Positions 1 through 55,372 of a stretch of DNA of 64,000 bases are shown here, in pieces. Position 1 is the stretch's first letter; the number at the start of each line of letters is the position of its first letter. This DNA is from Cyanidioschyzon merolae (lineage: Eukaryota): assembly GCA_000091205.1 (NCBI GenBank), contig AP006498.2. The stretch is one strand, 5' to 3'. The notes beneath the pieces are model-generated. The model was given only the letters and a program-made list of their open reading frames with translations, made no database searches and was not told where the DNA came from. The position numbers were made by a program, and so were the translations under genes.

Positions 1-875
1 GTCGGAAAGCAAGCCGTGAGCCGTCCTCGTCCCTTTCAAATTCAGCCTTAGAAACAATGTACGCCCGAAGAAAGTTGGTCCGCGGCGGTATAACAAGTGT
101 GCTGCTGGAAACCCTCTGGAGTCGAAGCCTTCGTCTCACATGGCTGTACAAGGCCGTGCGCTCACTCGCGTAACACGAGTTGCAACCCGGTCGCCAAACC
201 GTCGATAGTACGAACGCCAATCGTGGAACAAGTTCACTGCCGTTTAAATCAGCAGTTCTGAAGCGCATGTCTGAAGTCCAAGTGTGACCGCTCCACCTGA
301 AATATCTCCGGCTCATATCTTTGAACCCATGGCTCACTTCTCGTGAATATCTCGCAGCAGACCTGAGCGCTGGTACGTGGCAGCGTCCGTTTCGCCCCAC
401 TGGCGCGAGGCGGTTTCGAATCGCAGAATTGCGCGCGAGCGGCGACCTCCGGGATCGATAAACAGCTCATAGATCGAGCGGTACTTGTGGGCGCTCTGTA
501 GAGAGACTCGAGCGACTTGGTGCCAGTCACTGGAACGTAGTTTCTTGACATCTTTCATCGTGGATATAGGCTTGGGACCTGTCACTGATTCCGTAGCGGG
601 TTCGAGTTCGGTGGTGGAGTGTTCTTTTTCTTTCCCAGGGGAGGCCAGCGTCATCCGCGTAGTTGCTGGACACACACACACACAGACAGACAAGGGAAGC
701 TGCATCGTGGGTTTCTAGTGTTTGCTGCGCAGTCTGCACCGCGCAGATTTCATCAAGTCTTGCTAGTAGTTCGTGTCAGGTGCTGCGGTGACAGCGGCTG
801 CACGCAACTTGCGCGTCGACTGTGTTGCTGGCGTTGGGCCTCTGCTTTTGGTGCGTTTTCTAACAAGCACGCTCC

Positions 876-2813
876 ATGGAAGCTAAGGACGACTGCACAG
901 TCATGAACGAGGCAGACAAGGTTGCAGCGTCGCTCGAGGAGCTCGCTGCGCACGAACCGATAGGAACCCTGCTCCTTCGGCGGGCACTAGCGGCAGATGA
1001 GGCGGTTTCGCACCTACATGAGTACGCTGGAGGCTCTGTATATCTCGAGCGACTTCATGCGCGAACAATGGTGGTGTACTTGAGGGATCGTTTCCGATTA
1101 AATCCACTTTTCGAAAGTTCAGACCAGGTTCTCGAAGTGGCGAATGTCATCCATTCATCGCATCCGCGCTCATTCGAGAAGTGTCAGGATCTGTTCCAGC
1201 GGTTTATGTTGGAACTACTCACCCAATATGTGCTCATGGACGCAATGGAGCGGTTGCAAAACCGTGGAACCTGGCAGGTAGACCTGGAACCTTTAGAAGA
1301 ACTCGTGCAGGAGGATCCATCGTACGCATCCGGTCTGGCGCGTGTGAGATTGCACGAGTTGGAAGCGATATTCGCGAAAAAGCATAGTCCGCTTTCGCAA
1401 AAGTCTTCCTCGAAGGCGAAGAAATCGTCGGCTTCTGCCAACAAGTATCTTGGTCTGGATCAGCGACAGCTGGCGACATCGCTTTTTCCAGAGGACCGCC
1501 TGCTCCCAATGGCCACGGAGTATGTGGAAGCGCTTCTTGAATGGCTTGGAAAGCCACCGTTGACTGCAGCGCTGGAAGCGCTTGCGATGCTCGAAAGGCA
1601 CAACGCTGCGAATCCGCATGGGCATGAAGCCGCATCTCCGTCGAGACTCGATTCCGAAGCACTCTCTGAGACGACTGCACGGCCGCAGAGGACGCAAACC
1701 GGGAATGAGAACCTTTCGCGATCACCGGGAAAAAGAGCGGAAATACGACCTGCCCCAGTAGCTGTTGCAGTTGGTGAGCAAGCGGCACAGACCACCGCGC
1801 TCGCGACCAAGAAGAGCGCTTCGAGGTCGCAAACGTCGACGCCGCCAGCCAGCGCTGCGGTACCACCAGCACCTCGTGGAACAAAACACGCTGAATCTGC
1901 GCTGGATGAAGCGTTTGCGCAGCATGGGCGCACAGGATCGTCAACGCGGGTTCAGGAAGCGTCGTCGACGGTGGATCAACAGCAAACCGAGCATGTGAAG
2001 TCGAGAACGCGAGTTCCGACACCAGCCGCGGACCAAGACCGGGAACCTGCTGCGAAACAGGTGGATCCGACAGATGATGCCATTGCGGAGGCCTTGCGAT
2101 ACAACGCACCAGATGAAAAAAGGCAGAGAGGAAAAGCCGCACCCCGTCTGCCTGCTGCAAAAGGGGCGCGCTTATTCCGACACCCTTCATCACTGACCAC
2201 GAATGAATATGTCGCTACACAGGAGAAGGTATCGGAGCACAAACGGCGGAAACGTGTGCATGAGCCTGTTGCGCCGGCATTCGAGTCAGATGCGGGCGGG
2301 AGACAGCCAGCTCGTCCTACGTCGCAGCCACAGGCACCTATGACGCGACCTGGTTCCCCGCAGCCAACGAAGCCGGCGACCAGAGGCGGTCATGAACTTC
2401 CTTTATCAAATGAGGGCGGCATCAAGCTCGGCCCCCTCGTTCGATACACCCCCGAAGAGGACGAGGCGCTACTTGACGGCATTCGGGCCTGTGGCGTGGG
2501 CCACTGGCGACTCATCCTGAATCGTATTCAGGACCGGCTACAGGAACCGCATCGGAGCTACCAGTCCGTTCGGAAACGAGCGGAGCAGCTGATATCCCAG
2601 ATTGGGACCCTCCCGGAGCCACCACCGCCTTTGAACAGCTTTGCCAAAGTCCACTTCACAGCCGAAGAAGATGCCGAACTGCGAAAGGGGATCGATCTCT
2701 TCGGCTACGGCTCGTGGTCGCGTATTCTCAAACACGGTCGTTTTCACCCAAAAAGAACCGCGGAGTCGCTAAAATCACGCGCTCGGGTTCTGAAGCTCAA
2801 TCGTCTGCTCTAG
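876..2813 (+). CDS. Myb/SANT (TRF/telobox-like) double-repeat DNA-binding protein
   Basis: 645-aa ORF. The C-terminus has two Myb-like repeats with conserved Trp/aromatic spacing: 'RYTPEEDEALLDGIRACGVGHWRLILNRIQD' and 'HFTAEEDAELRKGIDLFGYGSWSRILKHGRFHPKRTAESLKSRARVL'. This resembles TRF-type Myb domains. The N-terminal region is low complexity. Confidence 0.5.
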   Translation: MEAKDDCTVMNEADKVAASLEELAAHEPIGTLLLRRALAADEAVSHLHEYAGGSVYLERLHARTMVVYLRDRFRLNPLFESSDQVLEVANVIHSSHPRSFEKCQDLFQRFMLELLTQYVLMDAMERLQNRGTWQVDLEPLEELVQEDPSYASGLARVRLHELEAIFAKKHSPLSQKSSSKAKKSSASANKYLGLDQRQLATSLFPEDRLLPMATEYVEALLEWLGKPPLTAALEALAMLERHNAANPHGHEAASPSRLDSEALSETTARPQRTQTGNENLSRSPGKRAEIRPAPVAVAVGEQAAQTTALATKKSASRSQTSTPPASAAVPPAPRGTKHAESALDEAFAQHGRTGSSTRVQEASSTVDQQQTEHVKSRTRVPTPAADQDREPAAKQVDPTDDAIAEALRYNAPDEKRQRGKAAPRLPAAKGARLFRHPSSLTTNEYVATQEKVSEHKRRKRVHEPVAPAFESDAGGRQPARPTSQPQAPMTRPGSPQPTKPATRGGHELPLSNEGGIKLGPLVRYTPEEDEALLDGIRACGVGHWRLILNRIQDRLQEPHRSYQSVRKRAEQLISQIGTLPEPPPPLNSFAKVHFTAEEDAELRKGIDLFGYGSWSRILKHGRFHPKRTAESLKSRARVLKLNRLL

Positions 2814-3896
2814 CTTTGCCTCGAGCGCCAACACGCGACCTCGCATTATGCATGTCAACCTGCACTACAAGCGTCTGCTTCAGTTCAAGCCGAGCAAATC
2901 CGGAAACCACCCGGTTACCGCGTCTATGTTCTTGCGGACTGCCCGAGAGCACGCGCGGCTCGCACACGACCTATGAAGCGTGCACCGTGACGTCGCCGTT
3001 GTCGCAGACCCCAAACATCCCTACTTTCCGAGTCTGAACGCTTTGCACCGCTGCTTCTTTCTTCAACCCCAGCGTGCATTCCAAGGACACGTGTTCTCCT
3101 GCGATTCCGCACTGGCATGCACGTCGATGGCGACACGCATCGCAGGCTGCGGCATTGCATGCATCCTGCCACGTGTCCGATCTGCTGTCTCCGATGCGTG
3201 CAAGCTTTCACTTGTGTGCTATCGTGCGAATTTGAAGCGCGCATTGGTGCTTGATATAGTGCAACACATCCAAATTTGGGCACCGTGCCGTGGAAGCCTT
3301 TTTGGTTTTTTGAAGGGCTAAAGATTCGATGTAGGATCGTGTGTACACCAACCGTGATGCCTCGATTCCGCGATGGGTATCTGCGTTCGGGAAGGCATCC
3401 GAGGCTCCACGCCTTGCCACCGAGTTCCGGGACCCATGTCTGCCCTCGGAGATATTGGTCATTTCGCTGGTTCCATCCGGTGCGGAGTCTATCGTGAGCG
3501 CCCCCTGGGACGCTGCCAGCGTCGGTACCGATAGAATGTCCAGAGGGAACGGCTTCGTTATGTCGCTGAGGACGTCCGCCAGAGGCGCCGCTCATCCGAC
3601 GAGGATACGGTCTCGTCGTCCGTTCGTGCTGCAACAGTAGGCGTATGCAAGCCTGCCTTCGTCATACTGAAGAAAATCAGGTGCTAGAACGAATCCTGCG
3701 GACCGAGTTTCCGCTTCGTAATTGTATGCGGCATGCGTCGCTGTTTGGCGATGCAGGCCTTGGCTCGGCATGCACTAGTGCAGAGGATCACGAAGCGCAT
3801 GACCTGCATGCTCGTCCGGTTCACGGGGCCTACCGCTTAGAAGGTAAAATGCCCCGAGTGGGCCGTCTCATGATTTTGGAATACGACCGAATGCGC

Positions 3897-5378
3897 TCAG
3901 GTTGGTGTACGATTCCCGGTTTTTGCCGTGGTCGGCGGTCGCTGCTCCTGCTGCAGCTGCTGCCAGCGGTCATACAGGGCTCCTAAACCAGCGACCTCGC
4001 TGCAGAGTGCCTCTATGGCTAGGCTTCGGTGCAAGCCGTCGAGTATCGGCTGGGATGCTGTTCGACGATCGGCTGCTACAGCTGATGCCTCATAGGGCGG
4101 CAAGGCGACCAGGATGCGTCGCAGGCGTGACCATCGCTGAGCATCTTGTTCGGATAGACTAACATTCGTTTGCGCCGAGGTTTGATGGCTCTGCAGCTCC
4201 TGCACAAAGGATCGAGCGCCGCGCACACACTCTTCGAGCGCACAGACAGACTGCTCGAGAGCGCAGAGCTCTGCGTAGAGGCGGCTGCAGCTCACCGAGT
4301 CCTGTACGCTGCGCAACGCTAGCGACAGCGCCATGCTGAGGACCTCGCTTTGGCTCCAAGAATCCGAGGCTGGCTCGCTAACGCAATCCTCCGTCGAATC
4401 AGCTGTACTGACTGCCTGTGCATGTTTGACACCCTGGACGTTCGGGCAGCTTTCGGTGCGCAGCGCAGTCGGAATGATGCGTTCAGAAAAAACGCGTGCG
4501 GCTGTCGCGCATGTGTCGGTAGCGTCCCGAGTCCTCGACGGTTGGTCGTGCCCAGGTGCGGAAACATCTGCGCCCAATGATTCTTTATCGTCGCTTTCAG
4601 TCCCCGCGTGAATACGACCAGCATTCGAATGTGATGACGACGAGCCCCAAAAAAGCGTTTGAATGACGTATCGCTCGGCTTCGGATTCCTCGACGAGCAG
4701 AGAAAGCTGTCTGATGTGTAAGCTGCCGAGAAACTCCTCCCACTGCTTAATGGTGTGTGTCCGCGGCACCCAAGCAACCTCCGCTGCCCCCGCCGCTACC
4801 TCCTTGCCGTCGTTTTCTGAACGTGGAGCTATCAGCCAGACTCGCACATTAGGATCCGCTGATGCCGCAGCACCAGCAGTAGCAACAACTCCGTCTTCTT
4901 CCCGAGTCAACGTCGCAAACTTGACATCCAACCAGATTGCCTCTTCTACAAACTCATGCATGATCGCGGCGTCGACGCTTAGTTGACTAGCGTCTAATGC
5001 TGTCGATTCGTCTTTTGCACTCGCGCTTCCAGCTGCGTACCATCCGAGAAGCGTCATTTCCCGATACATCAGACGCGCCGCCTGATAGACGCGTTCAATA
5101 TGGTGTGGCGTGAAAGGTACACACTCCGCTACAGCCATAATGCGCCAACAACAAGACCTTGAAACTGCAGCGGCACACTGAAGATGCAGCACGGCCGTCT
5201 CCGCAGGCCAGTCCGGCCTCGTTCCAAAGACAAGCCCCTGTGTCACCACACGCCCAGTAGCCTGGGTGCCACTAGAGGCTCCCCGGGCCCCGGCACAGAG
5301 CCGCTCAAGGGACCGTGTGTAGGTTTCCGATACTCTCAGAAGCGCTAACGGGTGCACGCATACTGCCTGGGCATCCAT
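3897..5378 (-). CDS. MPN(-) domain protein, CSN6/eIF3f-family-like
   Basis: Begins 'VCVHPLALLRVSETYTRS', the classic start of the Mov34/MPN fold. Also has '...REMTLLGWYAAGS' (the LGWYxTG motif of catalytically inactive MPN proteins) and 'SEAERYVIQTL', similar to the TEAERIGVDH segment. A C-terminal helical extension follows. Confidence 0.45.
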   Translation of the reverse strand: MDAQAVCVHPLALLRVSETYTRSLERLCAGARGASSGTQATGRVVTQGLVFGTRPDWPAETAVLHLQCAAAVSRSCCWRIMAVAECVPFTPHHIERVYQAARLMYREMTLLGWYAAGSASAKDESTALDASQLSVDAAIMHEFVEEAIWLDVKFATLTREEDGVVATAGAAASADPNVRVWLIAPRSENDGKEVAAGAAEVAWVPRTHTIKQWEEFLGSLHIRQLSLLVEESEAERYVIQTLFWGSSSSHSNAGRIHAGTESDDKESLGADVSAPGHDQPSRTRDATDTCATAARVFSERIIPTALRTESCPNVQGVKHAQAVSTADSTEDCVSEPASDSWSQSEVLSMALSLALRSVQDSVSCSRLYAELCALEQSVCALEECVRGARSFVQELQSHQTSAQTNVSLSEQDAQRWSRLRRILVALPPYEASAVAADRRTASQPILDGLHRSLAIEALCSEVAGLGALYDRWQQLQQEQRPPTTAKTGNRTPT

Positions 5379-16975: not shown

Positions 16976-17629
16976 TCAGTGGTACGCTTCTCTTGAGCTG
17001 ACGCTCCCTGCACCCACGTTTGGTGCCTCGAAGGCGGCATTCGGCGTCTCGGCGCTGGCCTCATGTTTCTGTTCGTTCATGATACCGAGCACCGTGCCCA
17101 TGGTCGCAACGCTCTGCTGCAGCGCGTTCAAAGTCGCTCGAAGTTCGGCGAGTTGCTCTTGCTGCTCGAGCCGTTGGCTGCTGATGGACTCCAGTTCGGC
17201 ACGTCGCTCGCAGATCTCCAACTCCAACTCGGAACAATTTGGTAGTCGCTCGATCTCGACACACAAAGCCCGCAGCTCTCGCTCGCTAGCTAACTGCGAC
17301 TCAGCAACGCTGAGCGCCTTCTTTTCCTCCGCGTATTGTTCCCGAAGTTGCTTCACTTGCGCCTCCAGTGTAGGCAGTGCTAGGCAACGAAGGTTGTCCT
17401 CGTCAGTGGCGAGCGCCTGCGCGGCTCTGGCGAAATGCTCGGCCGACTGCTCGAGCGCAGCCAGCGATCGAGCCAAAGCGTCCGGGGAGGTTTCCACTCC
17501 GCGTCCTGCTTGCGTGAGTACCAGCACTTGACCTGCTGACTGTAGGAACTCGTCGTAGCGCTGTTCAAGTCGTGCAGCGATTGCTGTTTCACAGTCACCG
17601 CTGTCGCTAACGGTGTACATTAGTGGCAT
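16976..17629 (-). CDS. hypothetical coiled-coil protein
   Basis: ORF rich in heptad-like 'LEQ...AEL...LRE' segments. The track start at 17698 lies inside the conserved Fanzor tail. The first in-frame ATGs are at 17629 and 17620, so the start is uncertain. No family recognised. Confidence 0.3.
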   Translation of the reverse strand: MPLMYTVSDSGDCETAIAARLEQRYDEFLQSAGQVLVLTQAGRGVETSPDALARSLAALEQSAEHFARAAQALATDEDNLRCLALPTLEAQVKQLREQYAEEKKALSVAESQLASERELRALCVEIERLPNCSELELEICERRAELESISSQRLEQQEQLAELRATLNALQQSVATMGTVLGIMNEQKHEASAETPNAAFEAPNVGAGSVSSREAYH

Positions 17630-17747
17630 GTGGCCCGCCCTAGACGAGAGGTCTCCAACTGACGTGCAGACGCGTCCCCGTCTTTTTCGACCGGCCACCC
17701 ACTACTGCTTCTAACTTTTTCTTATATAGTTCGACTTTAAGAGGTTG

Positions 17748-19716
17748 TCAAACAAAGTTCTCTCTTGTCAACTCTGGAGCTCTCGTCTCCAGCACCGCAC
17801 ATCTCCTGATATTGATGGCGGCATCGAAGTCACGATTCACGAATTCCATACGTTTCTTGCCATCGTTGGTTGTACTGACCAATGCGAGTAGTCCACGAAC
17901 TTTCGCCATCCTTTCCATTTGCTCCTCCGTAAGCGGTCCATACTTTATTATATCTTCAGGGCTCCTCTGGCACTTTTCCATCTCCACTCTCTGAAGTGTA
18001 CAACCCAGCTCGTGGTGTGTATACGATGTTCGAAACTCATCTACAGGTATCGTAACGAAACGCCGTGCACACTCCTTGTGCGCTCTCGTCGTTGGAGCTG
18101 GTGTACACCCTTTTTGGGTCTTCCAGCGCCCTGCTCCGTATGCTACGACGAGCCTCTGACTTTCATCCTCCTTCAGGGCGTTCAACTGATTGAAAAAGTT
18201 CGCGAACGCCCGCTGTTTCCCACAGTATAGATTCATACGCAGACGAGCCCACCGAGGCTTTGTATACTCCTCCCACAGCGCCTCCCAATGAGCAACGCGA
18301 ACTTTCATGAATTTCAGAAAAGCTTGAAAGTCCGCTCCTCGGCTCGTCACCTCGCTCATAGCTTCCAAGTGGTCCTTTATTCCTGCATTCCATGTCTTAA
18401 TTTTCTTCCTCGCATTCATGATTCCCGATTCTCGATAGTCTCTTGCTGTCGAGAACCTCAGAAGACGCATGTGTTTCTGACGCAAGTTACCGTCAGTACC
18501 GTCGTCCGCAAGCTTGGATACAGCGATGGATATGATATTTGTGTTTCCGGGGTCCGCGCCAACGACAAAGTCGTTTTCCTGCACTTTCTGCGTCGCAGCA
18601 TCCGCTTGTTTGTTTTCTTCATGTTTCGCCGAGCGCGAAGCCGAGGGCGGAACTGGACGATCTTTCCTCAACCGCAGATAGTGTACACACATGGGTATTC
18701 CATCGCTTTCAATCAACCCAGTGAATTCCTTTTTCTTGCTGACTTTGAGCCCTTTGAAATTGAAGATATTCTTCCAGTACGTCTCGCGGGTTTCGGCGGT
18801 GATCTCTGTGCTCCTTACATCGAACTCGGGACTGGTCTCAGTCATGATGCCGTAAAGGACGCCGGAGTCGATAGTCACAAAATGTGACTTGATGTTGCCC
18901 AACGGAACCACGTTGAAGCGCTCGCCCATTAGGAACGCCTTCCGTCTCTCCCATTCTTCATTTTTTTCCTCACTCAGCTTCATCTCCGCTTTGCGATCGA
19001 GCTCTCGGTCCAAAAACACAAAATACCGTAGGACGAGACGATCGTATCTTTCCTTATCTTTTTTCAACTCTGATATCTTGTCTGTCGGATTCGCCAGCCC
19101 CGAAACTGCACGGTGCTCTTGCATAACCGCACGGATTACAGAAGCTGCATTCGTGATCTCTTTTGACGCCTTCTTGTCGACGAATCCGATCCCATCTACA
19201 CGCCGGCGATTGTTCGTGATGCCATTGATAATCGCCCATATCCCTTTGGGAGAGATGCCCGGGATAGAGTGCAAATGCGGCGCGTATCATGAAACGTTCG
19301 AGGTTCGTTGTCAAACGATTCTCCAGATTCGTGAGTCACTTCATCGCCCCATAGTCGTAAATATCCCGGTCATCCCTGTACTGGGTACCCTCGAAGCGGA
19401 ATTCCGCGAAGTTTTCGTGGAGGGCATGCACCCGCTCATTTTCCATCCGCGCATCCTTTGTACCAAGCATCAGCTGACGAATAAACTTCTTATCGAAAAA
19501 CTCGTCCGGAATCTCGACCGTTTCCATGTGCGTCACGTCGCGATACATCTCCCGTACCAAATGCATCAGTCCTGACGACGCCTTTACAATACTCTTGGAG
19601 TACGAGTCGACACGGTTTCTGATAGCGTCTCGCAACTTTTCCCTGTAGGGATCCTTGATATGCTTAAGGACACCGGCTTTCACCACCATCTCGTCGTACA
19701 TTCGTCTTTCTTGCAT
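17748..19716 (-). pseudogene. Fanzor1-like TnpB-family RuvC nuclease, disrupted (~655 codons)
   Basis: The three track ORFs 19336..19716, 19054..19314 and 17748..19274 are pieces of one gene. Motifs: '[12 protein letters not shown]' (RuvC-I), 'CTPAPTTRAHKEC...HHELGCTLQRVEMEKC' (zinc finger) and 'KKRMEFVNRDFDAAINIRR' (RuvC-III). An in-frame TGA at 19333-19335 falls where copy B has Tyr. Near 19272 a 1-bp insertion ('tatcccggg' vs copy B 'tgcccggg') shifts the frame. Confidence 0.75.
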
Positions 19717-19733
19717 CGTTCGACGTAGAGCCT

Positions 19734-19743
19734 CCCCCCCCCC
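19734..19743. repeat. poly(C) tract (10 nt on + strand; poly(G) immediately 5' of the copy-A Fanzor start codon on the - strand)
   Basis: Reads 'cctccccccccccttt'. Confidence 0.8.
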
Positions 19744-20703
19744 TTTGGTCCTTCTTCTTTTCCTTTTCTTCTGGACTCGTCACTGTTTTTTGTTTTTTCT
19801 GGCAGCCGGCGACACTGGGCCTCCAGGATCGTGGACTTGCTTTTTCATCACTTTCCTTTTCTTGTTTGTTTTTGAAAAACAACGCTCTTTGATCCCTTCT
19901 GTTATACACAGCAAAAAATCAATCGAGCATTTTTCCTTGAGGTTTGAAACACAAATGAACTGAAAACTGTACTTTGCTACGACCTCAACGCAAACACAAC
20001 TTTTACAGCTGAACAAGACGCTTCTGATCGCGATTGCGTCTCCCTTCAACGGCGACGGGCGCGTCGTGTCTAATGCCTGCCAGATAAGGATGTGCGCGTA
20101 TCGGGCGCACTCTATAGAACAAAGAACAGATACTGACCATTAAATCGCCACGAGATAACGATTTCTTTCCCCTCTACGATAAACGTTGAGACGGGGAAAA
20201 CTGTCGGTACTTTCGAAAGTTTACCTTCTAGACGCAAGGTCCCGCGGATTGCACGAGTCTCCCAGGCTCGTGCTTCACGCTCCGCCACTGGCAGGTGCTT
20301 TCGTGACATCTGAGCAACTCGTCCGTAACGCACTCCACTCTGGGACTTGGAACGGGTAGCCGCCGTCTGGGCGTTGCCCATGATGCAGTGGACTCCTGGT
20401 ATATCGCGTTGCGCTGCCGCAGGCACTAGATCAATCTGCGCAGCTTGCAGACTCCTAGAACGACTATGAGCCACGACTCCGTTTCAGGTGAAGCGTTCCT
20501 CGGTCCGACGCCCTCAGAGGTATGGCAAAGCCGTTCAGTCTCCGTGATGCATCGGCATCAGCGATAGAACCGCAATTGCGGGTGCTCAAAGCAGGTAATC
20601 GGCGCTCGATAGAGCATAAGAATCGACCATTACATCCGAAAAGGTTTATGGGTCATGTAGCTTGAGGGTAAGTGCATCATGATGGATGCTTTCCCGAAAC
20701 CCA

Positions 20704-20728
20704 ACATCCATCCATCCATCCATCCATT
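20704..20728. repeat. (CATC)n microsatellite
   Basis: Reads 'catccatccatccatccatccat'. Confidence 0.85.
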
Positions 20729-21050
20729 CTGCAATCTAGGATCCATGGTCCACGTAAACGTTTTGTATAAAAAATTCTCATCAGCAGCAGCGACGGCGCT
20801 AGGCCCCAGCCGTCATCCTGGCGCCCGCTGAAGGCTCGCTGCGAAGCCTCGGCTGCATCGCAAGCCCAGGTGTCGTTCCGTTGTCAACCGAAAACACTTG
20901 TAGATCGAGTTGGTGCTGAACAACGTGGGCTCTGTGACTCCTCCCTAAACTCTTGCTCGCTTCTGATTGGGAAAAGGTTTGCAGCCTCAAACAGTGTGTG
21001 GAGAACACTAGAACTTAACCAACACCACACCGCCCACGACACAGTTACCC

Positions 21051-25453: not shown

Positions 25454-25662
25454 GACGCGCAGAACAACGCGGACTTGGAAGCGAAGTCGCTGATGCCCAC
25501 TGCACTACCCGTACGAGTCCAGGGGTCTAAGCTGTGACTGTCCGGCGTCCAGCACGAGCAGCGAAAATCGCGAAAGCGTTTTGGCTTGACGCTGGGCGCT
25601 GTGTCCAGTGTGACTGGATCCGCCAACGTTGACGACGCGTGCGCCGCACGTGGCATTCCTGG

Positions 25663-26130
25663 AGCGGGCGTATGCGAACCCTGAACCTACGGAAGCGAGT
25701 TGCTCTCAGAGCGGGCGTGTGCGAACCCTGAACCTACGGAGGCGAGTTGCTCTCAGAGCGGGCGTGTGCGAACCCTGAACCTACGGAGGCGAGTTGCTCT
25801 CAGAGCGGGCGTATGCGAACCCTGAACCTACGGAAGCGAGTTGCTCTCAGAGCGGGCGTATGCGAACCCTGAACCTACGGAGGCGAGTTGCTCTCAGAGC
25901 GGGCGTGTGCGAACCCTGAACCTACGGAGGCGAGTTGCTCTCAGAGCGGGCGTGTGCGAACCCTGAACCTACGGAGGCGAGTTGCTCTCAGAGCGGGCGT
26001 ATGCGAACCCTGAACCTACGGAAGCGAGTTGCTCTCAGAGCGGGCGTATGCGAACCCTGAACCTACGGAGGCGAGTTGCTCTCAGAGCGGGCGTATGCGA
26101 ACCCTGAACTTACGGAAGCGAGTTGCTCCC
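25663..26130. repeat. 47-bp minisatellite, ~10 tandem copies
   Basis: The unit 'gagcgggcgt(a/g)tgcgaaccctgaacctacgga(a/g)gcgagttgctctca' repeats head-to-tail with a/g variants at two positions. It lies ~200 bp upstream of the 25453 start of the lipase-like gene. Confidence 0.9.
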
Positions 26131-28261
26131 GGAACGAGCTTCGGATTCTGGAAAAGCGTTCGCAGTCTATGGAAGCGATGAAATCCTGTAGATGCGTTGA
26201 GATTGTATGGAGGCTCCCGCACCTGTAGTGGCGTTTGCTCAGTATTCAAGCTTCCGCTGAAGATGCGCTTGACCATTTACCGAAGCATCGATGCTCTTCG
26301 GTACGTGACTGCTCGAATCCGAATTGATTTCCGCTACACAGACAAATTTGAAGGTGTCGGGTTTCGCTCCTTCTCCTAATCGTATTTTCGACGGTATTCC
26401 CGGTACCGAGCCTGACGGTTCACAGACTCGATCCTGTGGCGATCTGGAGGCCCCGAAAGCGTCTAGCAGAATAGTAGTTGCGCGGAGCACTTGGTGGCCT
26501 ATGATTATCGATCTAGTCTGCAGCAAGTATGTGTTTTTAAATGCTCGGCGTTTTTTTGGCGTCTGCGACCCCAAAACGTTCTCTTGTATTTAATGAAGAA
26601 CAAGCTCGACGGCCGAGTCTGCGCACACGGATACGGAACACGTGCTGAACGTCGATGCACTGGCAACGCGCGAAGCACGCTGCACTTTCAGAACAGCAGC
26701 GTGTGCGGCTCGCTCGATTTCATGCATCCGCAGCAAGTCACCAGCAAAGCGACGAGCTGCGCGACTCTCGTATTCTCGCTAACAGGTCGCTGGCGACTTG
26801 CTCAGGTTTCCATACAGCCGAGGCACCATGGGTATATGCTCCAAACGACCCCGCTCGCTGCTTGTTGAAGTTCACGCGAAACGTTTGGGCCGTAAATGTG
26901 CGGACCCGCCCCAAGGATCTGGAGAAACGTTCCACGCGATGCGTCGCTGCTTGCTCGCAAGACTCAAACCCGTTTTCAATCGATGCTCTGTGCGAAGAAC
27001 AGAGCGCCATCCCGGTTCGGCGGCTGGGCCTCAGATCGAGCACGGGTGTACTACCTCTTATGGGGCGGGCATCTTTATCCTATTCGTCTTTTTATGATAG
27101 GCTCGGACACGTGTCCGCGACACGCATATCGGGCTCGCCTGCCCTGAGCGCCCCCCGGACACGTAGCGCTCAGATGCGTGCGTGTCTGAGTACCTAGACA
27201 TGAATGTACAATTAGGACGATGCAGGGTGAATTCTCCACAACGCCTCTTTACCTCTCGTGTGATCCCAGGAGCGAAGCGCATGCATCCCAGCAATATGCA
27301 TCCTGCATATAGCGCAAAGACAATGAAATGATGTCCAGTTCAGTTGCTTCGGGATACTAATCGGAGCGAACGGACCTGGACTTGTGGTTGTGCAGGTTGT
27401 CGTCTTCTAGACCGCACGTGGTTCTGGGCCCGAGTCCAATCGGCATTCCAGGAGGACGCTAGCAGCTGGCATGCCATGAGCATGAGCGAGCGACGGAAGC
27501 GGGTAATGGACGAGTCGATCGCCGGCTACAGGCCCAGCAAACCAGCGCTCGGTTTCGCAGCTCGTTCTTTCACGATATCCTCTTAGCGGTGGCTGCAAAG
27601 CGCGTTGGATAAGTACAGTCCAGGCACTGGAGCGAGCTTTAACGGAACTGCGAACAATATCCATTCCAGACGCTATTCAGCTTGCGTACGTACAGCGTTG
27701 CCATAGGAAGCAACCAGGCCCCTTGAAAAGAAAGGGTTGTTCTGGGCTCCCGTCCCGCTGATGAAGCGTACCTCCATCTATCAAACGCTCATCTCCAGAA
27801 CGTCGCAAGTTCGGCGACAAGACAATCAAGTGTGGGATCAGACGGGCCTCAGCGGCTGGCGTCATGTTGGCGTCGGAGTAGTTCTCAAAGGGCGTGTGTG
27901 TGTGTGTGCCGCCGCCCCAGCTTTTTCTTATGGCTCGCACTCGTTGCGTCCCCGAACCAGGTTCCCCGGAAGCGGGGGTACGGCAGGTACGTCAGGACGA
28001 TGAACAGAGCTCGTCCGCAGTCGATTCCATATACGCACTGCTTCTGCACCAGACAGGAACTCGTTGCTGACAACTGGCCTCAGCCGCACGAAGCGAGCCG
28101 TGCTGAGCGATGATTCGGGGGCGTCCAGAGATCCAGCGCAGTCGAGTCGTTCTGGGGCCCGAGGTGCACTGAACTCAATACCCGCTGTTACTCGCTCGCA
28201 TTCCTATTCATCAAAGTTCGAATCGGCCGACATATGCGTGCCATTGGGTCACTGAACGTCC

Positions 28262-43595: not shown

Positions 43596-43925
43596 CAGAC
43601 AATCAGAATGTCCGTCTCGTTCTATAAACTACTGGTATGAACGTCTCTGCGAGTCGCTTGTCGTCAGGATGTCCGTCTCTTTCCATAAAATACAGGTATG
43701 GCAAGTTTCTACTTGCCGCTTGTCGTCAGAATGTCCGTCTCTTTCCATAAAATACAGGTATGGCAAGTTTCTACTTGCCGCTTGTCGTCAGAATGTCCGT
43801 CTCTTTCCATAAAATACAGGTATGGCAAGTTTCTACTTGCCGCTTGTCGTCAGAATGTCCGTCTCTTTCCATAAAATACAGGTATGGCAAGTTTCTACTT
43901 GCCGCTTGTCGTCAGAATGTCCGTT
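43596..43925. repeat. 62-bp tandem repeat, ~5 copies
   Basis: The unit is 'cgcttgtcgtcagaatgtccgtctctttccataaaatacaggtatggcaagtttctacttgc'. The first copy is degenerate and four are near-perfect. Track ORFs 43516/43760/43822 are artefacts of the repeat. Confidence 0.9.
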
Positions 43926-44421
43926 TATTCAAGCAAATTTCATATATGCATCATTTCGAGGAGTCGGTGAAATCGTCCGTTGTTCGCCGCGCACGCATCC
44001 TGGCGTTCGGGATGCGCGCGGCGTTCGCGCAATCTTCGGACGGCTCATGTTATGATCGAGTTTCCCCGCTGATGTTCCGGAACAAGTAGTCAGATGTTTC
44101 CCATCCCTACCACTGGACCACGTCAAATCAAATGTACTCGTTTATACAGCATAATTTTGATCAAGTTCCATGACATGTGAAACGCAAACTGAGCCGCGTA
44201 CGCTTCTTGGTTCCGAGGCCTCTGGTATCTATCGGTCCGTGCTGAGCAGCTCACAAGCACATGAAGACCAGTTTCGGTTCGTCGACGCTGTACCGCGTCA
44301 TGCGGCGGGGCGCGATAGCGCTTCTAGTTCAGCCCTGCAATGAGGTCGGCCTAGCACTTCACGGTTCTTGGGCGTTCTTGGGCATGATTTAAATATTTAC
44401 GCGACAAATCTAGACGACTCG

Positions 44422-45789: not shown

Positions 45790-46310
45790 GGCGTACAAGC
45801 AACGTCCCAAGTTGATCCATCCATCTATGTATTTATACTCAGCAAAACGGATATCTTTCTAGGACCATAGAGTGTGTATAGAAACCTACTGACAGACGCC
45901 CCGTAGCATCAATGGACCCATGGGCTGCAATCAGCTTAAGTTTATACCTGCACACTTCGTGCATCAAAGGCTGCGTCGCAAAATTCACTCGTGTCTGCTC
46001 CGCGAGTCTCGTCTTCAGCACCGCTTTCCGTCTGACATTGATGGCGGTGTAAAAGTCCCAGTTCACGAATTCCATGCGTTTATCGCCTCTGGTGAAACGG
46101 ACGTATGCAAGGATGCCTCGAAATCATACCCTCCGTGCCACTAGTCTCGTGGATCTCTCCTCTTCTTCCTCACCTACTCTTCTTCGCACGACGGTCGGCG
46201 AGAAAAGGATCTTTTTCGTTATTTTTCCGGGAGCCGGCGACACCGGGCCTCCAGTATCCTCGATTTCCATGTACATAACTTTTCCTTGATTCTTTTATTT
46301 CTTCAAATAA
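45790..46310 (-). mobile_element. internally deleted Fanzor-family element (5' conserved block fused to the RuvC-III coding remnant plus 3' tail)
   Basis: ORF 45839..46075(-) reads '...RGILAYVRFTRGDKRMEFVNWDFYTAINVRR', matching the copy-A C-terminus 'RGLLALVSTTNDGKKRMEFVNRDFDAAINIRR'. The DNA below it is homologous to the copy A/B tail ('ggtccattgatgctacggggcgtctgtcagtagg' vs 'ggtccaaaaaaggggaggcgtctgcacgtcagttgg'). Positions 46141-46310 match the copy-A 5' block ('gggagccggcgacaccgggcctccagtatcc' vs 'ggcagccggcgacactgggcctccaggatcg'). Confidence 0.6.
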
Positions 46311-46389
46311 ATGCAGTTCTTTGTGCCCGTAGATAAGGAACTTCCCGGAGGGAGTGGGACTTGCGGAAGAGAGCCGAAACGTGTCCCGG

Positions 46390-46880
46390 TGTGTCATTGT
46401 GTGCCGAACGCTTTCGTGATTCGCCCAGTGGAGTGATCGTCACGTTTCACGATACAAAACGCTCCTTCGATGTGGTTGAGTCAAGTCGCGTACTGAGGAG
46501 TGAAAGGCGGCTCTACTCCGATAGAATCGGCAATAGCTCGAACACATGGGTAATGGTGAAATGCAACGTCGTCGAATGGACGGACGTCACCAGACTTCAG
46601 CGAGAAGTCTTCAATGATTCGACGAACTGTGTTCTGTTGTATATGCCTTCCCCAGGAGCGAAACGGAGACCTCCAAATGAGTCCACATCAGCAAGAACAG
46701 ATGATGTCCTCGTTCTGTTGGGGATCGATCGGACATACGACGATCCGCCCCTCCGCGAATACCCATGTACCATCCGACAGTTTCATCCGAATCAAGTCTC
46801 ATTGACTCAAAAAACAAACCAAAGTCCCTGTGCTTCACATCGATCGTGGCGTTCCAGGAACGCTGTAGGTGCAAATTCTG
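46390..46880 (-). pseudogene. possible Tc1/mariner-like DDE transposase relic
   Basis: Minus-strand frames give 'RLDSDETVGWYM...' and '...DVRPFDDVAFHHYPCVRAIADSIGVEPPFTPQYAT*'. This is reminiscent of the Tc1 DNA(x)H ... PPYSPDLNP C-terminal block. It is interrupted by stops. The resemblance is weak. Confidence 0.25.
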
Positions 46881-47612
46881 TGGAAGATGGCGGTGATTGA
46901 ACTAGGACTCTTTTTTGCGATTAGATTCCAGTGATCTCAGGATCCGCACCATCAAGCTGTTGAGAATCAGAGATGCCGGTTGCGGCTACTATGGTCGCTT
47001 TTGTTGCTCGTAAGTAGTTCATGTTGAAACCATTGACCGAAAGCAGTATCTGATATTACCATTTTTTGGCGCGGAGCGCAGATACTTGTTTCACTCAGTA
47101 TTCCTCAAGCATTTGAGTACTGTGTCAAGACTCACCTGAAGGAAGAATGTTGTCCTTCTTGCACGATTCAGTAAAGAATATATCCTGCAAACAAGTCGTC
47201 GACGATGCATACGGCATGTAGCATCATGATGTCGATCTACTGCTACACACTGAGAAGGAGCATTCGATGACACAGACACCAGAGATGGAACGTAACTGAG
47301 ATGAAAGACGATAACACCGTATTCGATACAGAACTATAACATAAGGGTCAATGTGGACACATTTTCTAAGTGACCTACATGAACTCTGGGGCTGTCGCCT
47401 AACTTTCATAACCGCAAACTCTTCGCGTGGTTTCCAGTGCTCGCTGCTGCGTCTCCACCACACTGCCCTGTAACCTAGTAGTTGCAGTGGAGGCTGCCGG
47501 TGTGGAGAAGCAAACGGGCTGTATACCGTGAACGTGACAGCGAGCGGCGAGTCTTCCTAGAACGTTCCTGTTCGCTGGCCGGGAGTGTAAACCTGCACCG
47601 GGCCTCGCCATC

Positions 47613-50133: not shown

Positions 50134-50255
50134 GCAGCGGCTGGAATGCGCACCTAATCGGAGAACGCTGGCCCAAGTAAACGTTTTGTCAATGAAAAAA
50201 AAGCTGGAATGCGCACCTAATCGGAGAACGCTGGCCCAAGTAAACGTTTTGTCAA
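50096..50255. repeat. (GCGT)n microsatellite followed by a ~62-bp tandem duplication (2.3 copies)
   Basis: 'acgtgcgtgcgtgcgtgcgtgcgtgcgtgcgtgcgg' is followed by 'gctggaatgcgcacctaatcggagaacgctggcccaagtaaacgttttgtcaatgaaaaaaaa' twice plus a partial third copy. It lies 150-300 bp upstream of the ACBP start. Confidence 0.85.
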
Positions 50256-51014
50256 TGAAAAAAAAAGCTGGAATGCGCAGGCGCTCTGCATTCGCCAAAT
50301 GCGATCGTGCGGTGCCTGCTTCCGCTGCTGCTTCTCGCGCATTCGGGCCCTGGGCAGTGCCTCGTACATTCGTCGATACTGTACCACACGAGTCGATCCG
50401 GCTGCATCAGAGAGCAGCAGCTTTAGCGGGATACGAGTTTTGGTCGAAGGTAGGTCGTTTAGATTCAAGGAGCTCATGATGTGGAGTTTTGAAGTGAATA
50501 GCGCCCGCGACATCACCCGAGTCGATGCAATCTGCTTTCGCTGATGCGGGAGACGGAGTATTTCCGATCACAAAACGTTTACGTTGACCATGTATCCCAG
50601 ATTGCGGAGTGGTTACTGGTTTTCGGGAAAGCGTTCATTATAACGCAACCTACCTTCAAGTTCTATGGCCTGTTCTCAGATATTCTGGTCGTTTTGTTCG
50701 TTCTATTATGCGCCGAGTTCCTGTCTTACTGCACCCGCCGTGGCGCTTATGCCGTTGAGGCAGATGCTTCACGGAGCTGAATAGCATTGCCATATCACTA
50801 GCGGCTTCGGTTCGAGGCATGATTCATTCGACATGGAGTCGGGCTATATGATTATCCTGGGAGCCTGCAAGCTGCGCAAACAGGCCGACAGTCTGCGACA
50901 GCGTGAAGCGATAAGCTGGGAGTCCATTGCGACCAGGGCGACGCCCAGATGTAGCGTTCCAGTCCCAGTTCCAGAATGAACTGCATTGCGGGCGAGTTGC
51001 TTGGATCTCCCTAC

Positions 51015-53195
51015 AGCTTTAGCTACTGAGGGGTGAATGAAGCACGAGCCTAGGGGACATTCTTGGACATATCAAGGATCCGTACGAGCAGGAATTTCGA
51101 GAGGCCATCAGAAACCGTTTCGCGTCCCACTCCATGAGTATTAAAAAGGCTTCTTCAGAACTAATGCATATGGTGAAGGAGATTTATCGCGACATGACTG
51201 ACATCATAACAGTGGAGGTTCCGGAAGAATTTTGGAACAGGAACTTTATTCGTCACCTGATGCCTGGCACATGGGAAACGTCAAAGAGAGATGAACTCGT
51301 GCGTGCGTTCCACGAGGGTCGCGCCGAATTCCGCTTCAAGGGTACTCGATACAGGGGCGATAGGGATATTTACGACTATGGGGCTATGAAGTATCTCACG
51401 AACCTGAAGAACCATTTGACAACCAACCTCGAACGTTTCATAATAAGAGCCGTATTTGCGCTCTGCCCGGGCATCTCTCGCAAAGGGATATGGGCGATTA
51501 TCAATGACATCACGAACGATCGCAAGCATGAAGATGGGGTCGAATTCGTCGACAAGAAGGAGTCAAACGAGAGCACGAATGAAGCTTCTGTGATCCGTGC
51601 GGTTGTACAAGAGCACCGTGCAGTCGTGGGGCTGGCGAATCCGCCAGAAAAGATATCAGAGTTGAAAAAAGATAAGGAAAGATACGATCGCCTCGTCCTG
51701 CGCTATTTCCTGTTTTTGGACCGAGAACTCGAACGCAAGGCGGAGATGAAACTGAGTGAGGAAAGCAATGAAGAGTGGGAGAGACAGAAGGCTTTCCTAG
51801 TGGGTAAGCGCTTCAATGGCGTTCTGTTGTGCAACATAAAGTCACATTTCGTGAGTATCGACTCCGGAGTCCTCTAAGGCATCATGAAGGAGATCTGTCC
51901 GGAGTTCGATGTCAGCAGGGAGGAATTCACCGGCGAAACCCGTCCGACGTACTGGAAGAGTATCTTCGATTTCAAACGTCTCAAAGTGAGCAGGCAAAAG
52001 TTGTTCACTGGGATAATCGAAACCGATGGAGTAGCCATGTCTGTAAACTATCGGCTGTTGAAGAAAGATCGTCCAGTTCCGCCCTCGGCTTCGCCAGTGA
52101 CGAAGGATGAAGAAAAGGAGGAGGCCGGTCCTGCGACACAGGATGTGCAGGATAACGACCTTGTCGTTGGCGCGGCGAAGGATGAAGATGAGGAGGAGGC
52201 GGGTCCTGCGACGCACAAAGTGCAAGATAACGACTTTGCCGTTGGCGCGGACCCCGGAAACACAAATATCATCACCATGGCAGTACCCAAGCGTGTGGAA
52301 GATGGCGCTGACGGCAACTTACGTCAGAAAGACATGCGTTTGTTGAGATTCTCGAGAGCGAGACACTATCGAGAATCGGGAATCATGAATGCGAGGAAGA
52401 AAATCGAGACTTGGAATGCTGGAATAAAGGACCACTTGGAAGCTATGAGCGAGGTGACGAGCCGAGGAGCGGGCTTTCAAGCTTTCCGGAAATTTATGAA
52501 AGTTCGCGTTGCTCACTGGGATGCGCTGTGGGAAGAATATACAAAGCCTCGGTGGGCTCGTCTGCGTATGAATCTATACTGTGGGAAGCAGCGGGCGTTC
52601 GCGAACTTTTTCAATCAGTTGAGCGCCCTGAAGGAGGATGAAAGTCAGAGGCTCGTCGTAGCATACGGAGCAGGGCGCTGGAAGACCCAAAAAGGGTGTA
52701 CGCCAGCTCCAACTACAAGAACGTACAAGGAGTGTGCACGGCGTTTCGTTACGATACCTGTAGATGAGTTTCGAACATCGTATACACACCACGAGCTGGG
52801 TTGTACACTTCAGAGAGTGGAGATGGAAAAGTGCCAGAGGAGCCCTGAGGAAATCGCAAAGTACGCACCGCTGACGGAGAAGCAAATGGAAAGGATGGCG
52901 AAAGGTCGACGACTACTTGCATTAGTAAGTACAACCAATGATAGCAAGAAACGTATGGAGTTCGTGAACCGAAACTTTAACGCCGCTATCAATATAAGGA
53001 GATGTGTGGCGCTGTAGAAAAGACCCTCCAGAGTTGAGAGAATTTCGTGGGACAACCTCTCAAAGTGGAACTATATGAGAAAAAGTTGAGAGAAGTAGTA
53101 GGTGGCCGGTCCAAAAAAGGGGAGGCGTCTGCACGTCAGTTGGCGACTTCGTGTCTAGGGCGCATTCGCCGCCACTACTGTACACCGCTGGCGAC
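51015..53195 (+). mobile_element. Fanzor/TnpB-like element copy B (5'-altered decayed ORF plus conserved 3' non-coding tail)
   Basis: Homologous to copy A at the protein level and along the 3' tail through ~53195. Copy B lacks the 5' 'ccggcgacac' block seen in copy A and the deleted copy. Confidence 0.7.
51037..53017 (+). pseudogene. Fanzor1-like TnpB-family RuvC nuclease, disrupted (copy B)
   Basis: An in-frame TAA at 51878-51880 falls where copy A has Tyr (TAC). A ~14-nt indel near the N-terminus sits between ATG 51037 and 'catatcaaggatcc'. A 75-bp in-frame tandem duplication (52103-52252) gives '[25 protein letters not shown]|[25 protein letters not shown]'. RuvC-III reads 'NRNFNAAINIRR' (Asp to Asn) and the stop comes earlier ('CVAL*'). 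Confidence 0.75.
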
Positions 53196-53326
53196 TGCTT
53201 TCGACTTTTGAAAGGCGTTCGCTGTCGCTGCCATGTGCTTCCGCAAAACCGCCTCCTCTGAACGGCCTCGACATCCGCTTTCGCAATAAAAGGCTCCGCG
53301 GGGTTTCCAATTGCTAAAACACGAGC

Positions 53327-54376: not shown

Positions 54377-54519
54377 CGCTGGACTTGGATACGAAACCCG
54401 GTACCTGATTCAAATCGAAGTTTGAACGGGTAGCTGTGTATCTCGAAAATCGAGGCTGTATATATACAAGAACGAAAGAGTGCAACATAGCGAGCTGTTG
54501 TTTGTGGCACTTTACATAT

Positions 54520-55250
54520 TGTGAGTAAACCAGAAAATGTTCCACGGATACTGGGGGTAGATTCATACCCACCAATAGAAACATCCGAGCATTTATGGAC
54601 TGGCCGCCTGCTTTCGGCATCAGCTTCTCCTTATAAAAGCATCAGAGGCTGCATCATGATTTTAGATCGCCTCAGGTCTTCAAGTCTGTTCTTCAGTGCC
54701 GCAAATCGTCTGATATCTATGCTCGCGTTACAGTCTCGTTTCACAAACTCTAGGCGTTTATTGCCACTGGTTGAACTCATGATTGCAAGCATTGCTAGCA
54801 CTGGTGCCGTCAACCACTCTACAGTTTCGTCTGTCGCTCATCTTCTCCTTTTCCCATTTCTTCGTTATTTGCTCTTCTTCGCTCCATGTTCGGCGAGAAG
54901 AGCTATTTGCCCGACGACACAATGATGAGCCTGTCGTGGCACTGAGGTCGCGAGTTCTAGCAATCCTTGCATATCTGCGTTCAACCAGAGGCAATAAACG
55001 CATGAATTCAGTGAACCGAGGCGTCGACGCCAGCATCAATATCAGACGAGTTGCAGTGCTAAAGACGAGCCCCCAGGAGCTGACGCGAGCCAACGCTGTC
55101 CGGCAACCTCTGATACTCCAGGTATTCCGGGAGAAACGGAAGCCGATAGCATTCGACCGCTCCATAAATGCCACGAGACGTCTCCAAGTGGATATACCAT
55201 GCATCCCCATGATTGGGGAATGTTTTTCGTTTTATCGTTATTGCCCGCGG
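54520..55250. repeat. ~730-bp near-palindrome (inverted repeat) built from two Fanzor 3' ends, arms ~54520-54850 (-) and ~54910-55250 (+), centred ~54885
   Basis: The reverse complement of the left arm aligns with the right arm at ~80% identity. Each arm encodes a RuvC-III remnant: 'NKRLEFVKRDCNASIDIRRFAAL' on the minus strand and 'NKRMNSVNRGVDASINIRRVAVLKTSPQELTRAN' on the plus strand. Each continues into sequence homologous to the copy A/B non-coding tail ('ggcaacctctgatactccagg' vs 'ggacaacctctcaaagtggaac'). The centre is itself palindromic: 'gctcttcttcgctccatgttcggcgagaagagc'. Confidence 0.75.
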
Positions 55251-55372
55251 CGGCTTCAGAGGCGTTGTCGCTCCGCAGGGTTTCCAGCCAAATAGCTTCA
55301 ACGCACTACGCTGGCACGTTTTCGGCACTACCGCCACCAGCTTGTCTGTGTGTTGGTGTATTTATCTGATCC

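Follow-up and report, generated by a model that had tools for sequence, protein, structure and literature searches.

Two decayed CMe-1A Fanzor1 elements of Cyanidioschyzon merolae: coding tail, true right end and a candidate omegaRNA

A stretch of 64,000 nucleotides from contig AP006498.2 of the red alga Cyanidioschyzon merolae (assembly GCA_000091205.1), hereafter the window, carries two copies of the Fanzor1 element CMe-1A, and the present analysis concerns the 3' ends of these copies as a candidate source of a guide RNA (omegaRNA). Three open reading frames (ORFs) of the window are exact matches to the C. merolae 10D proteins BAM81879.1, BAM81869.1 and BAM81872.1. CMe-1A was described by Bao & Jurka in 2013 (Mob DNA 4:12, PMC3627910) as a C. 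merolae Fanzor1 family of about 150 genome copies, each about 80% identical to a consensus of 3169 bp, which has a single-exon ORF for a 734-aa protein but neither terminal inverted repeats (TIRs) nor a determinable target-site duplication (TSD). Its 5' 635 bp, and only these, are common to another family, TE-N2_CMe, which is present in about 70 copies (PMC3627910). The 2013 description predates omegaRNA biology and gave the 3' end no function (PMC3627910).

The published consensus was aligned to the window to identify the two copies. Copy A occupies 17581 to 20766 on the minus strand; consensus positions 6-3151 match 20766-17599 with 85.1% identity, family similarity spans 20766 to about 17600, and the envelope of the family profile reaches 17580. 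Its ORF of 508 aa (19274-17748, minus strand) ends at a TGA (17750-17748) and is split at about 19300. Copy B occupies 50565 to 53219 on the plus strand and aligns in three blocks (consensus 1-492 at 50565-51051, 1081-2196 at 51060-52175 and 2117-3169 at 52171-53217; 78-89% identity). From this split alignment it has suffered an internal deletion, with loss of consensus positions ~493-1080, and a 75-nt tandem duplication; the left ~490 bp are kept and the copy is not 5'-truncated. The duplication (window region 52101-52250) falls within the ORF, immediately before the RuvC-I motif, and the 25-aa unit which it doubles is found in 2-4 copies in the metagenomic relatives P0002, P0007 and P0009. 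The ORF of copy B, on the plus strand, is frameshifted and ends at 53017. As judged from these alignments, the nuclease genes of both window copies are dead, that is, pseudogenes, and copies A and B, at 85-89% identity to the consensus over its length, are ordinary decayed members of the known CMe-1A family, with nothing structural to set them apart.

To place the protein, a family profile was built from 15 homologues and run with hmmsearch against the PDB sequences. It matched the solved Fanzor1 chains of Parasitella (9cf0, E=2.8e-20) and Spizellomyces (8gkh, E=2.3e-11), and no credible match beyond these two was found in that search. The ORF of copy A carries the split RuvC motifs DPGNTN, DEFRTS and NRDFDAAINI, and in the profile alignment the family motifs DPG, DEFRTS and NRD..AA.N fall on their counterparts in PpFz1 and SpuFz1. 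A reading of the window made from its letters alone (the sequence-only reading) had called these ORFs Fanzor; on the profile matches the label is correct, and the protein is a Fanzor1. Pfam-A searches with the window ORFs and distant homologues found nothing, and the database lists DUF8286 only, weakly. A C4 zinc finger between RuvC-II and RuvC-III is the motif described by Bao & Jurka (PMC3627910); in this family the segment reads SYTHHELGCTLQRVEMEKCQ..., with two His and two Cys and without a clear CxxC...CxxC.

The sequence-only reading had further taken the 145-180 nt downstream of both stop codons as a conserved non-coding tail. Copy A (reverse complement) and copy B do remain co-linear past their stops, far more than chance would give, as it had noticed (18634-17600 versus 52170-53198, 87.7% identity by BLAST; E=3.5e-36 for the tail alone), but the tail is for the most part not non-coding. 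Read-through of the TGA of copy A gives ...ENFV, a stop, the peptide QPLKVELYKKKLEAVVGGRSKKTGTRLHVSWRPLV and a second stop. The intact relative P0001, which is 93% identical, encodes ...ENFVGQPLKVELYKKKLEAVVGARSKKTGTRLHVSWRRFV and stops at the same position, and the QPLKVELYKKKLEAVVGGRSKKTGTRLHVSWRPLV peptide is also encoded by P0007 and by the consensus 734-aa ORF, whose end reads GGA CAA CCT ... GTC TAG, with the stop at 3108 followed by 59 nt. Relatives at about 40% identity end in ...F.GQPLVHRVG..L.R, the C-terminal F.GQPLV..VG being conserved to that distance, and in the diverged copies C, D and D2 a related peptide stands in frame with the RuvC-III motif. By these comparisons the final 36 codons of the consensus ORF account for about 108 nt of what had been taken as non-coding, and only 59 nt of the consensus lie 3' of the ORF.

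In copy A a single change of GGA (Gly in the consensus and in intact relatives) to TGA truncates the protein at 17748-17750 (minus strand). Behind it lie 35 codons of ancestral C-terminal coding sequence (17643 to 17747, minus strand) and the ancestral stop TAG (17640 to 17642, minus strand), which is placed by the family alignment and the consensus in the 3' arm of a conserved AGAC-N5-GTCT stem. Copy B has a TAG at 53015-53017 and two deletions, of 5 nt and of 2 nt; the remnant of its coding tail (GGA CAA CCT..., 53050 to 53158, plus strand) contains the 2-nt deletion near 53104 and ends with the ancestral TAG at 53156-53158. For the family as a whole, 79 related loci, one of which (L004) is the locus of copy A itself, were collected from metagenomes dominated by C. 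merolae-like genomes and yielded 57 non-redundant tails. The 49-codon frame is open to the canonical stop in 19 of the 57 copies; in 16 there are early stops near the junction of ENFV and GQ or after PPE, and the remainder are frameshifted or read through. These premature stops cluster at two spots. A TAG replaces a hypervariable T(T/G/C)G codon after RPPE in about 10 of the 57 copies, and further stops fall on the G or Q codon that follows ENF(V/I), near the profile-aligned ends of the solved SpuFz1 and PpFz1 chains, which lie within a few residues of the stop of copy A (loci L006, L019, L021, L023, L024, L027, L042, L049, L051, L065, L066 and L076; window 17748-17750). The clustering could be subfamily ancestry or tolerance of truncation.

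The right end of the element was then located in many copies. The sequence-only reading had set the boundary of the conserved block after GCGAC (A at 17603, B at 53195). Similarity of A and B in pairwise comparison does drop there; in about 50 independent copies, however, a further 22-24 nt past GCGAC are conserved, which take in a terminal hairpin and end with ...GAAAGGCG(TT). The order 3' of the stop in the family is GGCG-loop-CGCC, then ACTACTGTACAC, a short variable linker, the hairpin and GGCG(TT), and only beyond GGCG(TT) are the copies unalignable. The hairpin falls into two sequence classes, CGTTCGA-CTT-TCGAACG (CGTTCGA-CTT-TCGAACGGCGTT in the copy A alignment) and CGTTTTTC-TTTT-GAAAGGCG (CGTTTTTC-TTTT-GAAAGGCGTT in the copy A alignment). 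Entropy per column stays at 0.2-0.5 bits within the conserved blocks and rises to 1.6 bits past GGCGTT. Two loci, L067 and L034, the one informative pair in a closest-pair analysis, are 99% identical up to GGCGTT and unrelated beyond it. In addition, a profile of the untranslated part matches copy B to 53219 and copy A to 17586 (envelope to 17580), and the published consensus ends with ...GCGTTTTTCTTTTGAAAGGCG. Taken together, the alignments of about 50 copies, the entropy, this pair of loci, the profile and the consensus place the true right end at 17581 in copy A and at 53219 in copy B (53217 by the published consensus). The apparent parting of A and B at GCGAC arises because the terminal hairpin has diverged in copy A.

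Since conservation continues to GGCG(TT), the segments 17585-17602 (minus strand) and 53196-53215, which had been predicted as guides, lie inside the element. Both are its own terminal hairpin: the former is contained in the diverged hairpin region of copy A (17581 to 17602, minus strand, by alignment with the family hairpin), and the latter agrees with the consensus hairpin of the family at almost every base. Aligning the flanks of many copies, the check which the sequence-only reading had itself proposed for its boundary, thus told against it, as the block does not end at GCGAC. The flank after the tail does differ between copies, as predicted, but from GGCGTT onwards and not at GCGAC, where the family is still conserved. 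The first 20 nt of true flank, by the jump in entropy and the pair L067/L034, are tcgctgcacgacttgaacag in copy A (17561 to 17580, minus strand); in copy B they are cgctgtcgctgccatgtgct (53220 to 53239, plus strand). These would be the candidate guide positions if an omegaRNA is made, and the guide positions and scaffold borders of the sequence-only reading are not to be used. An ORF of 240 aa (16976-17698, minus strand) is open from inside the right end of copy A into this flank; its flank part is coiled-coil-like, with no ATG until far downstream, and judging from it copy A may be inserted in or just upstream of a host gene.

At the left end, a pyrimidine-rich run with GAT before it, for example GCTGATTTTTTTC, is found upstream of the consensus start (CGATGACAAAACG) in most copies; in the window the run lies at about 20766-20790. 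The alignments suggest that CMe-1A ends slightly beyond the consensus on both sides, with GGCG+TT at the right and GAT plus the T-run at the left, the left addition being either part of an element about 15 nt longer than the consensus or a target that the element prefers. When the left end of copy A or of locus L009 was compared with its right end, TIR scores were no better than chance; an apparent direct similarity of about 30 nt between the two ends scored below the inverted control and was dropped. Inspection by eye of copies with both ends gave inconsistent TSDs. Right ends without an ORF were found neither in the window nor in about 0.4 Mb of related contigs, apart from two unanchored matches at locus edges.

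In all characterised Fanzor and TnpB systems the 3' end of the ORF and the right end of the element give rise to the omegaRNA, whose guide is the adjoining flank (PMC10432273, PMC10530073); a candidate omegaRNA at the corresponding place in CMe-1A is therefore reasonable. To see how this region evolves, entropy was calculated by codon position from the family alignment, and predicted folds were compared with 200 shuffles. Entropy at codon positions 1/2/3 is 0.34/0.31/0.66 in the upstream coding sequence; the first 15 tail codons have 0.48/0.26/0.61, and codons 16-35 have 0.53/0.58/0.67. The flat pattern of the latter indicates that the last ~20 codons do not evolve in the manner of a protein-coding sequence, and the predicted structured domain begins at tail codons 14-16, where the periodicity is lost. 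In the untranslated part, the blocks GGCG (0.17 bits), CGCC (0.35) and ACTACTGTA (0.46) are all below the 0.66 of third codon positions, whereas the loops between conserved blocks are hypervariable (1.1-1.25 bits; 1.25 in the loop of hairpin 1).

On the sense strand the final 130 nt of the consensus have a folding energy of -55.9 kcal/mol (z -3.64, 0/200 shuffles as good), against -39.3 kcal/mol on the antisense strand (z -1.58). In the sense fold the ORF segment GCAGUAGUGG is paired with CCACUACUGU of the untranslated region, and the terminal hairpin stands separately. Positions 17581-17708 of copy A have a minimum free energy of -50.6 kcal/mol (z -2.86), with the topology of the consensus. 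The mean energy of the terminal hairpin over 46 copies is -10.6 kcal/mol in the sense and -6.5 kcal/mol in the antisense direction, and both sequence classes form the hairpin. The predicted structured domain of copy A, the candidate omegaRNA scaffold (17581 to 17708, minus strand), comprises a long-range stem (GCAGTAGTGG/CCACTAaTGT), internal hairpins and the terminal hairpin region; hairpin 1 (GGCG...TGCC, degenerate in copy A) and the motif ACTAATGTACAC (family consensus ACTACTGTACAC), both marked by low column entropy, lie at 17613 to 17639 (minus strand). The corresponding candidate in copy B (53092 to 53219, plus strand) has hairpin 1 at 53159-53173, ACTACTGTACAC at 53174-53185 and the terminal hairpin at 53193-53219, and the same long-range stem is predicted as in copy A.

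We consider it fairly probable that the 3' tails of A and B are the decayed end of CMe-1A, of which the last ~130 nt serve as omegaRNA scaffold in functional members, with the guide following GGCGTT. The sense strand of the element, 5' to 3', holds the last 36 codons of the ancestral 734-aa ORF (truncated by GGA to TGA in copy A, and by the upstream TAG and the indels in copy B), then the ancestral TAG, then an untranslated right end of 59-61 nt made up of the GGCG/CGCC hairpin, ACTACTGTACAC and a terminal hairpin of 8-12 bp up to ...GGCG(TT). The scaffold would begin with GCAGTAGTGG, 68 nt upstream of the stop, and extend through the terminal hairpin (17708-17581 in A, 53092-53219 in B), so overlapping the end of the ORF as in ISDra2 TnpB and GtFz1. 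GCAGTAGTGG would pair with CCACTACTGT and close the structured domain, and the terminal hairpin would abut the guide, namely some 15-20 nt of host DNA after GGCGTT (17580-17561 in A, 53220-53239 in B). Because both nuclease genes are dead, an RNA from A or B could be used only with protein from an intact copy. Alignment shows which element this is, that most of the tail is ancestral coding sequence and where the right end lies. The scaffold role of the last ~130 nt in functional members is what we infer from position, fold, conserved complementary blocks and loss of periodicity; with a Fanzor1 protein and flanks that are random beyond GGCGTT, an omegaRNA overlapping the end of the ORF is the best functional reading, plausible but unproven.

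Several results weigh against this assignment. The covariation check which the sequence-only reading had called for was run and was negative: RNAalifold on 46 tails gave a consensus stem of 3 bp only, and none of six helices defined by hand covaried more than its shuffled columns did (one helix set, 124/500 and 262/500; the other, 109/500 and 103/500). In most stems both sides are conserved, which makes them uninformative for covariation. The helices without excess covariation include CCGGTC/GACGGG, inspired by the sequence-only reading, GGCGTCT/AGACGTT and the long-range GCAGTAGT/ACTACTGT. Among departures from Watson-Crick pairs G.U has a weak excess over A.C, and this asymmetry is confined to the terminal hairpin (35 versus 21). 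The fold of copy B is no better than its shuffles (z -0.09). An Rfam scan of 17300-18100 at E<=10 returned a chance snoRNA match only, and in the 40%-identity relatives the 3' regions are missed by a nucleotide profile of the right end. The copies are old (about 80-85% identity) and many are dead, so that conservation partly reflects common descent. Of the palindromes proposed as scaffold stems, GACGCGTC is not conserved (family consensus GAGGCGTC), and neither it nor GGCCGG gives a supported stem in the family alignment. The proposal of an omegaRNA at the 3' end of the ORF and the right end is thus partly supported, by position, fold and loss of periodicity, but the region is mostly ancestral coding sequence, its end is not GCGAC, and no covariation above shuffles was seen.

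Another possibility is that the similarity of the two tails is a passive relic, i.e. the shared descent of two pseudogenised copies without present function, any guide role being extinct there. The tails are about 83% identical, not above the 88-90% of the ORFs, and the split ORF and nonsense codon of A, the deletion, duplication, stop and indels of B, the lack of covariation and the poor fold of copy B all fit it. Against it stand, family-wide, some untranslated blocks more conserved than third codon positions beside hypervariable loops, and a consensus fold that is significantly better than shuffles on the sense strand only. We regard it as a rather unlikely account, if one to be taken seriously; it also concerns copies A and B, and function in intact family members is still compatible with it.

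Less likely still, though deserving mention, is a cis-acting signal in DNA or mRNA, in which the right end and its hairpin are read by the transposition machinery (for example a hairpin-dependent single-strand or rolling-circle process) or direct mRNA 3'-end formation. CMe-1A has no TIRs and no determinable TSD, in the published description (PMC3627910) and in our own searches; the element ends exactly at the base of the hairpin, and in many copies a G/T-rich bias (..GGTG..) follows the end. On the other hand, the hairpin is markedly more stable as sense RNA with G.U pairs, which a duplex-DNA signal would not show, and no transposase is encoded. Moreover, TE-N2_CMe reached about 70 copies without this right end (PMC3627910), so that mobilisation of that kind does not require it. 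The two roles are not mutually exclusive, as the right end of TnpB elements serves both.

Comparison with known systems bears on both the guide RNA and the mode of spread. With the Fanzor1 omegaRNAs of SpuFz1, PpFz1 and GtFz1 (Saito et al. 2023, PMC10432273; Xu et al. 2024, PMC11423790) CMe-1A shares a nuclease that is a profile relative, and a candidate RNA at the 3' end of the ORF and the right end with few stem-loops before the guide position; the scaffolds of SpuFz1 and PpFz1 have two stem-loops only (PMC10432273, PMC11423790). The GtFz1 omegaRNA overlaps its ORF by 17 codons (PMC10432273), and the candidate RNA of CMe-1A would likewise overlap coding sequence, but for longer (about 22 codons versus 17 aa). 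Unlike these three, CMe-1A has a non-coding right end of about 60 nt, no TIR and no confident equivalent of the 7-bp stem-loop 1 (SL1). The omegaRNA (reRNA) of ISDra2 TnpB, of the IS200/IS605 type, resembles the candidate in a scaffold that extensively overlaps the 3' end of the nuclease ORF, a guide taken directly after the right end, and an element without TIRs but with a structured right end. CMe-1A differs in belonging to the eukaryotic Fanzor1 lineage, which is said to derive from IS607-type TnpB (PMC10711439), and in having no Y1 transposase, and no defined target motif or transposon-associated motif (TAM) could be assigned to it.

Fanzor1 genes are also carried by Tc1/mariner elements, for example PUl-1, the metagenomic elements of the homologue P0081 (L085-L090) and copy C of the window. 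These share with CMe-1A a Fanzor1 of about 41% identity with the C-terminal F.GQPL and a nuclease gene that adjoins the right end. At several loci P0081 (41% identity) lies inside Tc1/mariner-type elements with an upstream DDE_3 gene, imperfect TIRs (TACTC...GGAACACC), a TA duplication and about 183 nt of non-coding sequence between stop and right end, which is the classical Fanzor1 arrangement. CMe-1A, in contrast, lacks transposase, TIR and TA, and its ORF is 22 codons longer: copies A and B show no TIR above chance, no TA rule and no DDE ORF, and no DDE_3 remnant was found in the 5' kilobase of copy A, whereas L085-L090 and the right end of copy C do have Tc1/mariner features. A motif that seemed common to CMe-1A and the P0081 elements (hairpin-TTACTGTA-GGCGTCGG) is anecdotal and was set aside, as an nhmmer profile did not detect it. 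A scan of viral contigs gave two weak, unrelated-looking matches.

CMe-1A, lacking TIR, TSD and transposase, might have abandoned cut-and-paste ends and spread by a route dependent on the hairpin or on an RNA-guided nuclease, nearer to the 'peel-and-paste' of IS200/IS605 or to homing than to Tc1/mariner, with an omegaRNA reaching about 22 codons into the ORF. The idea draws on the sense-strand hairpin at the right end and on the left GAT with its T-run, and we give it little credence. A hairpin was found at the right end only, the left feature may be element or target, and no transposase gene is present. The exact model of the sequence-only reading, a non-coding scaffold of 145-180 nt ending at GCGAC and followed by the guides 17585-17602 (minus strand) and 53196-53215, is hardly tenable, for although A and B do part pairwise after GCGAC, the consensus and about 50 copies continue through the conserved hairpin to GGCG(TT), 53196-53215 is nearly the family hairpin itself, and 108 nt of that scaffold are consensus ORF.

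When copy A is compared with the window by BLAST, short diverged fragments turn up near 46000 and 55000 as well. The first belongs to copy C (45836 to 47204, minus strand), a divergent copy consisting of a Tc1/mariner-type DDE_3 remnant (47204-46400; tblastn with the DDE_3 protein of L086, E=1.3e-14) and an internally deleted Fanzor remnant (46307-45836). Its tail is 45979-45836, and its right end, ...GTTTTGCTGAGTA directly followed by TA (GCTGAGTA, then TA), is like the TA-flanked ends of the P0081 elements. As copy C is of mariner type and copies A and B are TIR-less, the window holds both Fanzor1 lineages. At 54480 to 55300 there are two diverged Fanzor C-terminal fragments in head-to-head orientation (54800-54480, minus strand, and 54960-55300, plus strand, recognised by in-frame translation). 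In these arms around 54880 the RuvC-III motif and the QPL... tail are kept, with nucleotide profile matches that are sub-threshold only. The same tail as in A and B had been claimed at both places. At 45790-45840, however, the interval is almost all flank, and the copy C tail has no significant nucleotide match to A or B; in the palindrome arms (54520-55250) the similarity is weak, at protein level or below threshold in nucleotides (E=0.4 and 1.5), and confined to the coding part. The general idea of the sequence-only reading is thus reasonable, and its anatomy is wrong on four counts, namely the non-coding status, the boundary, the guides and the retention elsewhere. Loci L074/L081 have, at about 3470-3960, a CMe-1A copy arranged tail to tail with a divergent Fanzor copy of mariner type, so that the right ends abut; the layout resembles the inverted one around 54880.

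Further traces of these families were noted. A 66-nt fragment at 3783-3848 is 77% identical to consensus 471-536, in the part common to TE-N2_CMe, and solo TE-N2-like copies of about 645 bp occur in related contigs (e.g. L051, 2933-3538). The metagenome contig L004 (Ga0123519_10004544) carries copy A's own insertion, with the same TGA and flanks 99% identical, and many further CMe-1A loci are found on other environmental metagenome contigs of the Joint Genome Institute (JGI); natural C. merolae-like populations therefore share these old insertions. The window also has tandem repeats at 25568-26225 (about 14 units of 47 nt) and 43643-43952 (about 5 units of 62 nt), and a perfect 63-nt duplication ending in an A-run at 50140-50265, about 300 nt upstream of the left end of copy B.

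The element itself has been known since 2013, and the candidate omegaRNA is plausible but unproven. If the assignment is right, it would be an incremental addition to an established class, as the omegaRNA principle dates from 2021-2023. It would nevertheless mean that a Fanzor1 guide RNA deeply overlaps its own coding sequence in an element without TIRs, and that C. merolae, a genetically tractable and intron-poor model red alga, would have a native RNA-guided nuclease system.

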